Shown in pieces: positions 2,951-33,643 of a stretch of 64,000 nucleotides of DNA. The stretch spans positions 18,829 to 82,828 of the forward strand of contig CAYVDC010000004.1 of NCBI GenBank assembly GCA_964450735.1, read 5' to 3'. The notes below the pieces were generated by a model. That model did not search any database. It saw only the letters and a program-made list of their open reading frames with translations, and was not told the DNA's origin. The position numbers and the translations under genes were made by a program. Source of the DNA: an uncultured Candidatus Saccharibacteria bacterium (GTDB lineage: Bacteria; Patescibacteriota; Minisyncoccia; Phycocordibacterales; UBA9973). Each line of letters opens with the position of its first letter. Within the stretch, counting starts at the first letter, position 1.

Positions 2951-3340
2951 CAGTGGAACTGGCGAGAATTGAACTCGCGTGCAAGAAGGAATGTAATATA
3001 GATCTACAAGCTTAGATCGTTTCAGGGTGTTTAAATACCGATGCTATGAAACAAACAAAATACAGCGGTATCGATTCTCAATTTATTTCAGGCTGTACGC
3101 GAGACGACGCACTTCCCTATCTCTAGATGTATGATATCCGATTTTCGCCTCTAGTGATCAACGAAGCGGATATCCAGATGTCGCGTTAAGCGAGGGCTGG
3201 AGCAAAATCTCCGAACGCAAAGTAAGGAGACTTTGTAAATGCAGTTTTTGCATTTGAGGTTTGCGCGATTATCACGAGATTCCGCACATACTCGGCATGC
3301 GTATACTACAAACGACTTCCTGTCGATGCCTGGCAGTCCC
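2951..3340 (-). ncRNA. ssrA: tmRNA (SsrA), CCA not encoded
   Basis: Minus-strand 5' end GGGACUGCCAGGCAUCGACAGG matches the tmRNA 5' acceptor plus the GGAUUCGACGGG motif. The 3' end has T-arm GCGAG-UUCAAUU-CUCGC, then CAGUUCC-A, which pairs with 5' GGGACUG (one G·U). Putative tag ORF runs from GCA (about nt 88) to ...GCU CCA GCC CUC GCU UAA (tag ends ...FAPALA). smpB is directly upstream on the same strand. Confidence 0.7.
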
Positions 3341-29953: not shown

Positions 29954-29957
29954 AAGA

Positions 29958-30662
29958 TTACTCCTTTACTGGGGCTGCAGCAGCAGCTTCAGGTGCTTTT
30001 ACTTCGACCGGTCCCATTCCTCGCTTGGTAGCGATTTTAGAAAGAGCTTTGATCGTCACACGGGCGATGTTGAGCTTGTTCTTTGAACCTGAGTTGATTT
30101 TTGAAGTGACGTTTGAAATACCGGCGAGGTTCAAGATGTCGCGAGTTGCTGATCCTGATACCAATCCTTTACCGTTGTTCGGTCGGATCATAACGCTTGC
30201 GCTTGAGTACTTAGCTGCTACTTCATGAGGGATCGAGCCTTTCTTGTTGAGATTGATCTTGATCATCTGCTTGCGAGCGCTTCGTACTGCTTTGTTGATT
30301 GCGAGCGATGTATCGCCTGCCTTTCCTGTTCCGACTCCGACTGATCCTTTCTTGTCGCCGATTGCAATTGAAACTGCAAATGACATACGTCGTCCTCCTG
30401 ATACCACACGGGTAACGCGGCGGATTGAGATCATCTTCTGTTCGAATTCAGGCTTTGGTCGGTCAAATGAAGGACGTCCTCGGCGATCTCCGCCTCGGCT
30501 TCCTCCTGGTCCGCCAGTTCGTGGGCCTGAAGAGCTACCTGCGCCTCGAGGACCTCCTGGTCCGCGTGAGCCTGCACCTCCACGAGCACCACCTGCACCT
30601 GCTGGTCGAGCATGAGCTGGACGAGCTGCTGGGGCTGCTGTTGTTGGTTTTGTGTCTGCCAT
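29958..30662 (-). CDS. rpsE: 30S ribosomal protein S5 with an approx. 75-aa Gly/Arg/Pro-rich N-terminal extension and an Ala-rich C-terminal tail
   Basis: S5 core …IRRVTRVVSGGRRMSFAVS…GKGLVSGSATRDILNLAGI… The extension is encoded by a locally GC-rich stretch. Confidence 0.9.
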   Translation of the reverse strand: MADTKPTTAAPAARPAHARPAGAGGARGGAGSRGPGGPRGAGSSSGPRTGGPGGSRGGDRRGRPSFDRPKPEFEQKMISIRRVTRVVSGGRRMSFAVSIAIGDKKGSVGVGTGKAGDTSLAINKAVRSARKQMIKINLNKKGSIPHEVAAKYSSASVMIRPNNGKGLVSGSATRDILNLAGISNVTSKINSGSKNKLNIARVTIKALSKIATKRGMGPVEVKAPEAAAAAPVKE

Positions 30663-30667
30663 ATAGT

Positions 30668-31018
30668 TTAGAATTTAAGACCAGCCTTACGTGCAGCATC
30701 CGCGAGGAGCTTTACGCGACCAGTGTATTTAAAACCGTTTCGATCAAAGACGACCTCCTTGATGTTTTTTGCGAGAGCAGCTTCTGCAACGAGCTTTCCG
30801 ATCTCTTCAGCGCGAAGAGTCTTGGTGCCTTTTGCAGTTTTTACGTCTGATGCCTGTGCTACTGTCTTTCCTGCATTGTCATCGATGATCTGAGCATAGA
30901 TGAATTTGTTGGAACGATAGACTGACAAACGTGGACGTGATTCGGTACCCGAAATTTTCATTCGGATTTTTCGCTTCAAGCGAAGGCGCTTCTGATCTTT
31001 GTTTTGCTGTGTTTTCAT
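30668..31018 (-). CDS. rplR: 50S ribosomal protein L18
   Basis: L18 motif …[20 protein letters not shown]…. Confidence 0.9.
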
Positions 31019-31583: not shown

Positions 31584-31970
31584 TTACCAAATCGAAAGGA
31601 TTACTTCGCCACCGACGTGCTCTTTCTTGGCTTCCTTGTCTGTAAGGATTCCTTTTGGAGTTGAGAGTACCATGATGCCGCGGCCGTTTTTGACTGGCTT
31701 GAGATCATTGACGCCCATATAGGTTCGTCGTGATACTTTCGATACGCGCATGACATCGTCAATGCGTGGTGTTGCGTCTTTGTAAAGAAGTTCGACCTCG
31801 ATAACTTCTCCTACTTTCTTTGCCTTCTTGCTTACGCTCTTGATAAATCCCGAACGTACCAAAGTGTTTGCGATCTCGAGCTTGATTTTTGAATGCGGAA
31901 AAGCGACGGTAGCATTACCGGCACGTGACGCGTTCTTGATCATGACGAGCATGTTTGCGATTGGATCCAT
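31584..31970 (-). CDS. rpsH: 30S ribosomal protein S8
   Basis: MDPIANMLVMIKNASRAG…. Confidence 0.9.
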   Translation of the reverse strand: MDPIANMLVMIKNASRAGNATVAFPHSKIKLEIANTLVRSGFIKSVSKKAKKVGEVIEVELLYKDATPRIDDVMRVSKVSRRTYMGVNDLKPVKNGRGIMVLSTPKGILTDKEAKKEHVGGEVILSIW

Positions 31971-31997: not shown

Positions 31998-32183
31998 TTA
32001 CCATGATGACTTGCGTACTCCAGGAATCATTCCTTCGTTTGCAAGTTCACGGAAACAGATTCGGCAAAGGCCGAAATCCCGCATGAATCCTCTACCGCGA
32101 CCACAGCGAAAACAACGATTTTTCGCTCGTGTGGAGAACTTTGGCTTTTTTAACGATCGGGCAACAGTTGATGTTTTTGCCAT
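31998..32183 (-). CDS. rpsZ: 30S ribosomal protein S14 type Z (zinc-binding, 61 aa)
   Basis: [61 protein letters not shown] has the CxxC…CxxC pattern. Only the C-terminal part of listed ORF 31998–32357 is coding. Confidence 0.85.
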
Positions 32184-32524
32184 ACTTAAAAAGCTACTTT
32201 TTTTAATAAATTCATCCTCCAATATCGCGCTTGGGCTCATGAGATGCTTAATTGGGCAAAAACCCTGTAAGCACAATATGAAACCGAACGGATTAAGAAG
32301 ACAAAAGCACCATGACCGGTGCTTTCGACATAATAGCAGAAATGGGTGAAAAGTCAATAATTATTACTGACAACCTTCGATACCAGGATCCATATCTATA
32401 ACGCATGGTGAGCCCCACTCCGTATTTACTACATCCATAAAGTTAGGATTTAAATTAAATTGCTTGGTGTACACTAAAAAAGAAGCTCCAATAAGAACTA
32501 TTTGAATAATGAATAGTTTTTTAA

Positions 32525-33022
32525 TCATATATAAACAACAGGTATATTAAAAAATACAATAATAAGGAATCGCGAAATTATCTGGCATAAAGTAAAAAGT
32601 ATAACAGTTAGAAGCAATTGTTTTTTAAATTTCCCTCTGCGGTATGGAAGATATGTTACCAAGATTGGTAAAATAACGACAAAAATATAACCGGTAGTGA
32701 AAAGCAATATAGTATTTCTTGGTTGAGTTACTATGCTTTCTTGCAGAAGAGCACGTACATTAGGAAGAATAGTCAAAACAATATGAGCAATACTCCCTAC
32801 TACAAGCAACCAAAAAGACCATTTAGCTAGGGTCGCATCACTTGAATCAGAAACTGGAGCCGGGATTGGCGTTGGAATTGAAGCTGATCCAGTAAGAAAA
32901 CTTGCTTCTGTTATCTCCTCATCTTTCCAACCTTGAGCGACCAATGTGGGGCGATAGACGGATTCGGGAATACCTGCTGCTTTTTGTTTTTGTATATATG
33001 AGACCAGATCCTGGTTTAACAT
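32525..33022 (-). CDS. membrane protein: N-terminal 40-aa soluble motif (L..YIQ.Q...G...E.I...L...GW..EEI.E.F) plus 3–4 TM helices; inserted between rplE and rpsZ
   Basis: N-terminal DLVSYIQKQKAAGIPESVYRPTLVAQGWKDEEITEASF, then hydrophobic helices. Paralogous N-terminus to the gene at 49756–50520. Confidence 0.5.
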   Translation of the reverse strand: MLNQDLVSYIQKQKAAGIPESVYRPTLVAQGWKDEEITEASFLTGSASIPTPIPAPVSDSSDATLAKWSFWLLVVGSIAHIVLTILPNVRALLQESIVTQPRNTILLFTTGYIFVVILPILVTYLPYRRGKFKKQLLLTVILFTLCQIISRFLIIVFFNIPVVYI

Positions 33023-33048
33023 ACACAGAGTATATCAGACCGTATAAA

Positions 33049-33080
33049 AGAAAAACACCCAGTAACGGGTGTTTTTCTTT
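33049..33080. terminator. intrinsic terminator aaaaacaccc-agtaac-gggtgttttt
   Basis: Seen directly, immediately after rplE. Confidence 0.7.
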
Positions 33081-33088
33081 TTGAAGTT

Positions 33089-33643
33089 TTATTTAGCAGC
33101 TTCTGCTGACTTGAACGGCACCCCGATCAACTCAAAGAACTTTGTAGCTTCTTTTTTGTTTTTCGCTGATGTGACGATAGTGATCGCCAAACCGAAGATG
33201 TCTTTCAATTCTTCATCTCCAGTCTCAGGAAAGATGCTGTGCTCTTTCACTGGGATAGTGATGTTACCGATGTCGTCTACGATGCGTCGCTCGAGACCGC
33301 GGAAGTCCTTTGTTCGAGGAAGTGCGATGTTGAGGAGCTTGTCGAGGAACGAGTACATGCGAGTATTTCGGAGTGTGACTGCAACGCCGATAGCGTCACC
33401 TGCACGAACCTTGAAGCTCGCAACTGATTTCTTTGCCTTGCGGAGAGTTGGCTTCTGGCCAGTGATCTTCGCGAGACGATCAAGAATGAAGTCGTTACGG
33501 TTCTTGTCTTTCTTGATAGCGCTTCCAGTTCCAACAGATATTACTACCTTCTGGATCTTTGGAGCAGCCATCTTGTTCTTGTAGCCGAACTCGCCTTTCA
33601 TTGATGCGATCGATTCTTCTGCTTTTGCTTTGACTGATTTCAT
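33089..33643 (-). CDS. rplE: 50S ribosomal protein L5
   Basis: L5 motifs …PKIQKVVISVGTG… LRNTRMYSFLDKLLNIALPR…. Confidence 0.9.
   Translation of the reverse strand: MKSVKAKAEESIASMKGEFGYKNKMAAPKIQKVVISVGTGSAIKKDKNRNDFILDRLAKITGQKPTLRKAKKSVASFKVRAGDAIGVAVTLRNTRMYSFLDKLLNIALPRTKDFRGLERRIVDDIGNITIPVKEHSIFPETGDEELKDIFGLAITIVTSAKNKKEATKFFELIGVPFKSAEAAK

Follow-up and report, generated by a model that had tools for sequence, protein, structure and literature searches.

We analyzed a 64,000-nucleotide stretch of DNA (referred to below as the window) from an uncultured Candidatus Saccharibacteria bacterium (assembly GCA_964450735.1, contig CAYVDC010000004.1, positions 18,829 to 82,828), focusing on the junction between the genes for ribosomal proteins L5 (rplE) and S14 (rpsZ) in its spc operon. 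All ribosomal protein (r-protein) genes of the cluster are carried on the minus strand. rplE and rpsZ are separated by 905 bp, compared with 2-31 bp for the remaining junctions from rpsS to secY and 4-31 bp for the junctions 3' of rpsZ. The guanine plus cytosine (GC) content of the gap is 0.36 versus 0.44 for the whole window. An earlier note on this DNA had described a membrane protein gene between rplE and rpsZ, and an open reading frame (ORF) of 165 residues with three transmembrane (TM) segments, ORF165, was indeed confirmed here. The same note had regarded the roughly 340 bp that follow as AT-rich and non-coding. The base composition was described correctly, but the 341 bp between ORF165 and rpsZ contain a 54-residue ORF (ORF54), a promoter, a U-tailed hairpin and a structured leader. 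In the order in which they would be transcribed, the features of the region are as follows.

33089-33643, minus strand: rplE, encoding L5 (Pfam Ribosomal_L5, expectation value (E) 4.5e-17; Ribosomal_L5_C, E 3.1e-27), predicted last gene of the upstream unit.
33046-33081, minus strand: intrinsic-terminator-like hairpin with a 15-bp perfect stem, a 6-nucleotide loop, an A-tract on the 5' side and a U-tract on the 3' side.
33029-33037, minus strand: promoter-like extended -10 element, TGATATACT, located 6 nucleotides 5' of the ORF165 ATG and read from the sequence.
32525-33022, minus strand: ORF165, with an N-terminal three-helix domain of about 45 residues, a Pro/Ser linker and three TM helices; no named family.
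32364-32528, minus strand: ORF54, with an N-terminal membrane anchor and the two-cysteine motif PCVIDxDPxIxGCQ.
32330-32357, minus strand: predicted rpsZ promoter with -35 element TTGACT, a 13-nucleotide spacer and extended -10 element TGCTATTAT.
32302-32327, minus strand: GC-cored hairpin followed by a U-rich tract (-16.2 kcal/mol, z = -5.3), located approximately at the predicted transcription start.
32203-32312, minus strand: structured rpsZ leader with a putative mimic of the S8 binding site (sole covariance-model hit in the window, 56.6 bits, E 3e-9).
31998-32183, minus strand: rpsZ, encoding a 61-residue zinc-ribbon S14 (Pfam Ribosomal_S14, E 2.8e-24), predicted first gene of the unit rpsZ-rpsH-rplF-rplR-rpsE-rplO-secY.
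31584-31970, minus strand: rpsH, encoding S8 (Pfam Ribosomal_S8, E 4.5e-38).

The hairpin that follows rplE begins 7 nucleotides past the stop codon and ends in the tail UUUUUCUUUU. Its folding energy of -20.5 kcal/mol (z = -5.6) was equaled by none of 200 shuffles and a repeat search returned it as a perfect inverted repeat. A GC-containing stem-loop with an adjoining U-tract past a stop codon is what is expected of a Rho-independent terminator. The hairpin that had been noted as a strong terminator directly after rplE was confirmed; it belongs to rplE, however, and not, as had also been suggested, to an insert that brings its own terminators. A simple terminator scan overlooked this hairpin because pairing between the A-tract and the U-tract absorbs the tail, and the total counts of a promoter and terminator scan of the window were no higher than in shuffles. 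Scanning of a single sequence therefore proves nothing and the case rests on conservation. For this, we used 80 loci from metagenome-assembled genomes (MAGs) of the Parcubacteria/Paceibacteria/Nomurabacteria type, obtained through an L5 protein scan of species-representative genomes. A terminator-like hairpin with T-tail (-12 kcal/mol or lower, at most 130 nucleotides from the L5 stop) was found in 57 of 79 relatives (72%), compared with 17 of 581 control windows taken from within these clusters (2.9%). Weak Rfam hits at 33046-33151 (ohsC, Phe-leader and others) merely reflect the terminator hairpin.

Upstream of rpsZ, the predicted promoter can be read as TTGACT-16-TATTAT with an upstream TG, which matches the consensus at 10 of 12 positions. 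It has the -35 hexamer, the spacing of 17±1 and the TGnTATAAT-like -10 element of sigma-70 extended -10 promoters. When the region is aligned with five relatives, neither the -35 nor the extended -10 columns vary, and the sequence further upstream is unrelated. In 41 of 59 loci, the pattern TTGAnn-N13-16-TGnTAnnWT was present 5' of rpsZ, and its usual distance from the start codon was 100-125 nucleotides. In six more distant loci (L078, L079, L082, L084, L085 and L087), a TTGACw-N14-TGnTAGTAT promoter is kept and followed by a leader of 26-77 nucleotides with a small hairpin, CCCAGCUUG...AAGCU, in place of the structured leader described below, and L081 and L090 share yet another leader of about 115 nucleotides. 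The U-tailed hairpin at 32302-32327 is present only in the window and in L011 and L033, the three closest sequences, and shows no covariation because the three are nearly identical. It may be a terminator for the inserted genes, a 5' stem-loop protecting the rpsZ mRNA, or both.

Between promoter and rpsZ, about 45 of 59 loci carry the same succession of elements: a stem strand (P1), the sequence RAUCC, a long hairpin (P2/P3), the sequence GNGAUAUY and the second P1 strand. The leader is about 145 nucleotides long in the window, where its parts are located as follows.

32296-32301 paired with 32215-32220, minus strand: P1.
32295-32293, followed by U-C at 32292-32291, minus strand: 5' side of a 7-nucleotide internal loop.
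32227-32290, minus strand: P2/P3 hairpin.
G-A at 32226-32225, followed by U-A-U-U at 32224-32221, minus strand: 3' side of the internal loop.

A hand-curated alignment of 39 leaders (A5; L026 is misaligned at its 5' end) was used to evaluate this structure. In the proposed fold, 87.7% of cells were paired compared with 64.4% in shuffles (0 of 500 as high), and sliding the 3' partners by 1-3 columns reduced pairing to 33-52%. Compensatory double changes were observed in 23 of 25 pairs, and P1 and P2 were independently obtained with RNAalifold. A covariance model built from A5 was then run over 910 kb (the window and 81 loci) and gave one hit per locus in 45 loci, on the operon strand and always immediately 5' of rpsZ. 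These hits include leaders outside the training set (L013, L040, L076, L041, L070 and L005). Inside P2, a conserved CUCC lies opposite GAAA (A5 columns 30-33 and 94-97) with two C-A mismatches. We also noticed a 9-codon upstream open reading frame (uORF; MNLLKKVAF, 32186-32215, minus strand) that begins in the 3' strand of P1 (GGAGGAUG) and stops 2 nucleotides before the rpsZ AUG. As a coupling device it was discarded, its length and position not being conserved in L011 or L033, and it is probably fortuitous.

Genes for L5 and S14 are contiguous in general, as the earlier note had assumed, but not within this clade. In the relatives, the L5-S14 distance ranged from about 20 bp to 5.4 kb (median 917 bp) and exceeded 300 bp in 43 of 58 loci, while 11 further loci had at least 5.5 kb of downstream DNA without S14 or S8. 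For one of these gaps, the covariance model gave a hit at the very end of a locus in which no S14 was found (L041, 12424-12513), so that rpsZ should follow just beyond the locus end, about 6 kb from rplE, and some of the loci without S14 should simply have very large gaps. The other 14 junctions of the same loci had medians of 13-94 bp and none was longer than 300 bp except L24-L5 (rplX-rplE), a second, rarer variable junction that exceeded 300 bp in 6 of 77 relatives and reached 5.3 kb. Since the other junctions are short across the same loci, the variability is specific to L5-S14.

The synteny comparison also showed that the genes found at this junction are mostly unrelated between genomes, with 117 of 166 gap ORFs having no relative in any other gap. 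Their Pfam content is mixed (DUF2177, RecG, RsmE, GH3, sigma-70, TraG/TrwB, MiaA and others) and 17 of 150 cargo proteins have a PG_binding_1 domain. About half of the larger cargo ORFs have a hydrophobic segment, and a few relatives carry TrwB/TraG-like genes in this slot. A cargo family of about 450 residues with a single TM segment was seen in nine gaps (L026, L031, L032, L038, L042, L043, L046, L051 and L052), in four of which it is followed by a DUF2177-type protein with three TM segments encoded on the opposite strand.

Some loci are free of cargo, with gaps of just 160-230 bp (e.g., L014, L019, L023, L059, L060 and L066), and still have the terminator, the promoter and the leader. As these relatives already have all three elements, the split predates the insertion and the membrane protein gene of the window fills a pre-existing slot. 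This reverses the order of events in the earlier note, according to which the insertion had broken the operon. A recently acquired foreign or mobile cassette that split an intact operon with signals of its own could account for the GC content of 0.27-0.33 in part of the insert and for a cassette restricted to the closest relatives. However, low GC is confined to the TM-coding part of ORF165, where the gap has its minimum (0.27-0.29), and the N-terminal domain is at the genomic value of 0.44. In addition, the window gap and its cargo showed no significant direct or inverted repeats at their flanks, no tRNA and no Pfam domain of an integrase or transposase, so that a mobile element or genomic island, which we had considered, found no support. 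Together with the cargo-free relatives, these findings make such a recent break very unlikely. Conceptually, the operon break is a property of the clade, with cargo sitting between the putative terminator and the putative promoter.

A different concern is that the cluster may essentially be one transcription unit, in which the rplE hairpin would be a leaky terminator or a stability element, the rpsZ promoter an internal booster and the cargo co-transcribed. Long r-protein clusters often have internal promoters and partial terminators, which counts in favor of this explanation, as does the fact that 64 of the 76 larger cargo ORFs in relatives share the direction of the operon. Against it, the hairpin, with its perfect stem of 15 bp and its U-tract, has the canonical form of a strong terminator and equivalents in 72% of relatives, the other 12 cargo ORFs lie on the opposite strand, and the 11 loci without rpsZ within at least 5.5 kb are incompatible with obligatory co-transcription. 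We therefore regard a single unit as unlikely. The suggestion in the earlier note that the spc operon is divided into separate transcription units very probably holds at rplE-rpsZ, where terminator, promoter and leader recur in relatives. Non-ribosomal genes also interrupt the S10, spc and alpha clusters of actinobacteria and other groups, where they likewise lie between conserved r-protein genes. In contrast to these cases, it is one and the same junction that has here received repeated, independent insertions throughout a clade, the inserted genes vary between genomes, and the site is bounded by a conserved terminator on one side and a conserved promoter with leader on the other.

The internal loop of the leader closely resembles the S8 binding site of 16S rRNA. 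This site, in helix 21, has seven conserved loop nucleotides that interrupt the helix, with two base triples, A595-(A596-U644) and (G597-C643)-U641, with U598, A640 and G639 flanking the loop; in Thermus, the first pair is C596-G644 and position 595 is a G (PMC4176348). All 39 leaders have a loop of 3 nucleotides on the 5' strand (A5 columns 18-20) and 4 nucleotides on the 3' strand (columns 110-113). The equivalents of A596-U644 (columns 19-113: A-U 30, G-C 9) and G597-C643 (columns 20-112: A-U 37, G-C 2) are unpaired in none of the leaders and show perfect A-U/G-C covariation. Taken together, columns 19, 20 and 110-113 read AA/UAUU in 29 leaders, GA/UAUC in 6, GA/CAUC in 2, AG/UACU in 1 and GG/UACC in 1. 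The A at column 111 (32223 in the window), equivalent to A642, is bulged in 39 of 39 leaders and column 110, equivalent to U641, is a pyrimidine (U 37, C 2). The flanking pairs are U-A in 39 of 39 (columns 21-109) and C-G in 38 of 39 (columns 22-108), corresponding to U598-A640 and C599-G639. The loop thereby maps one-to-one and in the same strand orientation on the rRNA site, and in L012 the leader (AGUCC...GAUACU) reads as the rRNA sequence itself (AGUC/GAUACU). What differs is that the leader mostly has A-U where helix 21 has G597-C643, with G-C in only 2 of 39, and that the surrounding helices are unrelated in sequence. On the protein side, S8 of the window keeps ...VLSTPKG... and ...RRTY..., which by eye match the Ser/Thr and Tyr contacts of S8-RNA complexes (PMC4176348). 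The 7-nucleotide loop reproduces the S8 site of helix 21, and we predict that S8 binds to it.

S8 is known to repress the spc operon of E. coli through a site overlapping the start codon of rplE, with a reported distribution limited to Gammaproteobacteria (PMC3616713). Both this site (Cerretti et al. 1988; Merianos et al. 2004, via PMC3616713 and PMC4176348) and the leader described here are mRNA hairpins with an asymmetric loop mimicking helix 21, and both lie among the spc genes on the upstream side of rpsH. The same outcome is also to be expected, namely translational feedback on S14, S8, L6, L18, S5 and L15 via coupling. However, the E. coli site lies inside a continuous operon, whereas the leader would be a dedicated 5' untranslated region (UTR) of rpsZ with its own promoter, past a terminator. 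L5 would thus fall outside the regulated unit. The origin of the leader is likely independent of the E. coli site. As a structured, rRNA-mimicking 5' UTR in front of r-protein genes, it belongs to the same class as the r-protein leaders in Rfam (L10, L13, L19, L20, L21 and S15), but unlike these it matches no Rfam 15 family: no match was obtained in the window gap at E <= 5 or in five relatives at E <= 1. The 20 r-leader candidates of Eckert and Weinberg 2020 include no S8 or S14 leader (PMC7247131), and in a literature search of incomplete coverage we found no paper on an S8 or S14 leader or on an L5-S14 split in Patescibacteria. The rpsZ leader is thus apparently an uncatalogued RNA.

Considering the junction and the leader together, we judge it probable that this locus represents an ancestral split of the spc operon into two transcription units, the second being an S8-autoregulated rpsZ-rpsH unit, with a permissive slot between the terminator of the first and the promoter of the second. 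We also lean, if only slightly, towards a more far-reaching view. According to this, the leader would be an undescribed class of S8-responsive autoregulatory RNA in a large Parcubacteria/Paceibacteria clade, independent of the E. coli rplE site, and the terminator-promoter pair would have turned L5-S14 into a clade-wide landing pad for genes that are repeatedly gained and lost, many of them envelope-related or peptidoglycan-binding.

Mechanistically, we infer termination, promoter activity, S8 binding, repression as well as expression and function of the cargo from sequence. The first unit (...rplN-rplX-rplE) would end at the intrinsic terminator right after rplE, and the second (rpsZ-rpsH-rplF-rplR-rpsE-rplO-secY) would start at about 32323 from its own strong extended -10 promoter of the sigma-70 type. 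Its mRNA would carry a 5' leader of 100-145 nucleotides with the long hairpin and the 7-nucleotide asymmetric loop copying the S8 site. When present in excess over 16S rRNA, S8 would bind this loop, stabilize P1 and repress rpsZ translation, and tight translational coupling across the 4-31-bp junctions would carry the repression to the downstream genes, following the logic of S8 control in the E. coli spc operon at a different site. In several relatives (e.g., L080, L060 and L067), the purine-rich 3' strand of P1 lies 9-15 nucleotides before the AUG and S8 binding would occlude the ribosome-binding site. DNA between terminator and promoter would be transcriptionally insulated and, as we propose, insertions would therefore be tolerated, with different lineages having filled the slot with different, mostly envelope-related or hypothetical genes. 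In the window, the slot would hold a two-gene cassette of ORF165, with its N-terminal helical domain in the cytoplasm, and ORF54, probably expressed as a leaderless mRNA from an extended -10 element of its own and probably ending at the hairpin at 32302-32327.

We propose S8 as the ligand because the loop matches the S8 site, the second gene of the unit codes for S8 and S8 is the known spc repressor of E. coli (PMC3616713). The same points argue against a leader that is real but binds something else (S14, L6, L18, S5, L15 or a small molecule) or only stabilizes the mRNA, since the loop, with its invariant bulged A and two covarying pairs, and the flanking pairs agree with the rRNA site position by position. 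Some features would fit such a leader better. Column 18, the equivalent of A595, varies (U 25, C 5, A 5, G 3) and is thus not consistently a purine, an extra bulged nucleotide at column 107 (never G) follows the C-G pair and is absent from the rRNA site, and no helix-21 counterpart was found for the CUCC/GAAA region of P2 with its C-A mismatches. Overall, we consider a ligand other than S8, or none, improbable.

Column 18 and the bulge at column 107 also belong to a set of observations that weigh against the two-unit, S8-autoregulated arrangement as a whole. The comparison with helix 21 was confined to the site as described in PMC4176348. Of the 59 relatives in which rpsZ was found, about 14, for the most part those most distant, are without the leader. 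In the window and its two closest relatives, where the extra 5' hairpin (32302-32327) precedes P1, the S8-like loop lies about 37 nucleotides from the AUG and P1 has no obvious overlap with a Shine-Dalgarno sequence. Transcription may to some extent read through from rplE into the cargo and rpsZ. Lastly, codon 4 of the L033 homologue of ORF165 is a stop, so selection on the cargo may be weak.

Hydropathy places the three TM segments of ORF165 at about residues 65-90, 103-127 and 135-165, in line with the polytopic membrane protein of the earlier note, and the loop PYRRGKFKK between the second and third segment is consistent with an N-in orientation. AlphaFold2 gave a model with a mean predicted local distance difference test (pLDDT) score of 70.6, consisting of a three-helix domain at residues 1-45 (pLDDT about 86-93), a disordered Pro/Ser linker and three long helices. 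Because the predicted template modeling (pTM) score of the whole chain was 0.31, fold searching was uninformative, and Foldseek against the PDB returned no match better than E = 3. Sequence searches of NCBIfam and the PDB gave nothing for ORF165 or ORF54, and no Pfam family was found for ORF54 or, at threshold, for ORF165. An assignment of ORF165 to Pfam DUF2231 (18.4 bits, E 0.0023) was rejected, as it falls under the gathering threshold of 26.4 bits. The N-terminal domain and the three-TM module were each found separately on other proteins in a profile search of 1.84 billion proteins, the former on many unrelated membrane proteins. P0004, a repeat match to the ORF165 profile, is an EGF-like protein and probably spurious.

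The window and L033 have TGATATACT as the extended -10 element upstream of ORF165, L009 has TGGTATAAT, and the layout of TGnTATAMT, 6 nucleotides and ATG is shared by these two relatives. Since the element stands exactly 6 nucleotides before the ATG, it suggests a leaderless or near-leaderless mRNA starting just 3' of the rplE terminator. ORF54 overlaps the ORF165 stop with its start (ATGA), appears among the gene calls of an independent assembly and is conserved in L009, L033 and L011. In L011 it is extended into a Kre9_KNH-like immunoglobulin (Ig) domain, giving a protein of 189 residues. Both proteins are probably accessory cargo with a role in the cell envelope rather than in ribosome biology.

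Three full-length homologues of ORF165 with 45-47% identity were found in searches of 5.8 billion proteins and, with profiles, of the 1.84 billion. Homologues occur only in L009, L001/L011 and L033, every one of them between L5 and S14 and directly downstream of rplE. In L009 the order is L5, a 163-residue homologue and a 56-residue ORF, and in L001/L011 an insert of 3.6 kb has the homologue as its third gene. The cassette is common only to the closest relatives (L5 identity 87-93%) and is therefore not a conserved ribosome-associated factor. That ORF165 could nevertheless be a ribosome or translocon factor, with a functional position next to rplE and rpsZ and upstream of secY, is suggested by its location in all four lineages that have it and by the presence of a membrane protein in a cluster ending with secY. 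The handful of homologues, the replacement by unrelated cargo elsewhere, the stop codon in one copy and the N-terminal domain shared with many unrelated membrane proteins all speak against this, and we give it very little credence.

The stop codon just mentioned is a TAA at codon 4 in L033 (6606-6617), where the promoter and ATG are kept and gene callers give just a 118-residue TM module (P0005); either pseudogenization or a domain-loss variant would explain it. It raises the question whether ORF165 and ORF54 are unexpressed, decaying remnants, all the more as ORF54 is a short version of the 189-residue L011 protein and neither ORF matches a known family. Three lineages, however, have an uninterrupted ORF165; at about 45% identity, 51 residues are invariant and all indels are multiples of three. 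Together with the conserved promoter layout and the short form of ORF54, which stops at the same motif in the window and L009, this leaves decay an improbable explanation. The membrane protein gene is ordinary lineage-specific cargo and the interest lies in the architecture that surrounds it.

Several further observations were made in the window. rpsE (29958-30662, minus strand) and rplO are separated by 4 bp (29954-29957) with no rpmD (L30) between them. S5 has an N-terminal extension of about 75 residues rich in Gly, Arg and Pro, resulting in a local GC peak of about 0.6 at 30400-30700, and the C-terminal tails of L22 and S19 are rich in Lys and Ala. A transfer-messenger RNA (tmRNA) gene at 2951-3340 (minus strand; Rfam 115 bits; tag peptide AQTSNAKTAFTKSPYFAFGDFAPALA according to ARAGORN) is the sole Rfam match at gathering level and the sole tRNA-like gene in the 64 kb.

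In conclusion, this architecture comprises a clade-wide and junction-specific break, an insertion-tolerant slot and an apparently uncatalogued leader mimicking the S8 site, with S8 autoregulation and r-protein leaders as its known counterparts. The linkage of L5 and S14 is commonly taken as fixed synteny, for instance when r-proteins are concatenated for phylogenomics or in binning. In this clade it is a hot spot with anything from about 20 bp to more than 6 kb of DNA, which is relevant to annotation and to quality checks of MAGs. The slot also bears on how insulated sites inside essential operons collect accessory genes. Feedback by r-proteins is well understood in E. coli, but the RNA sites through which it acts there are mostly confined to Gammaproteobacteria (PMC3616713). 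Little is known of how r-protein balance is achieved in other phyla, above all in uncultured candidate phyla with reduced genomes. The leader would be a second, independently placed example of S8 mimicry, and a covariation-supported mimic of the S8 site in front of rpsZ would provide a directly testable regulatory element for these organisms.

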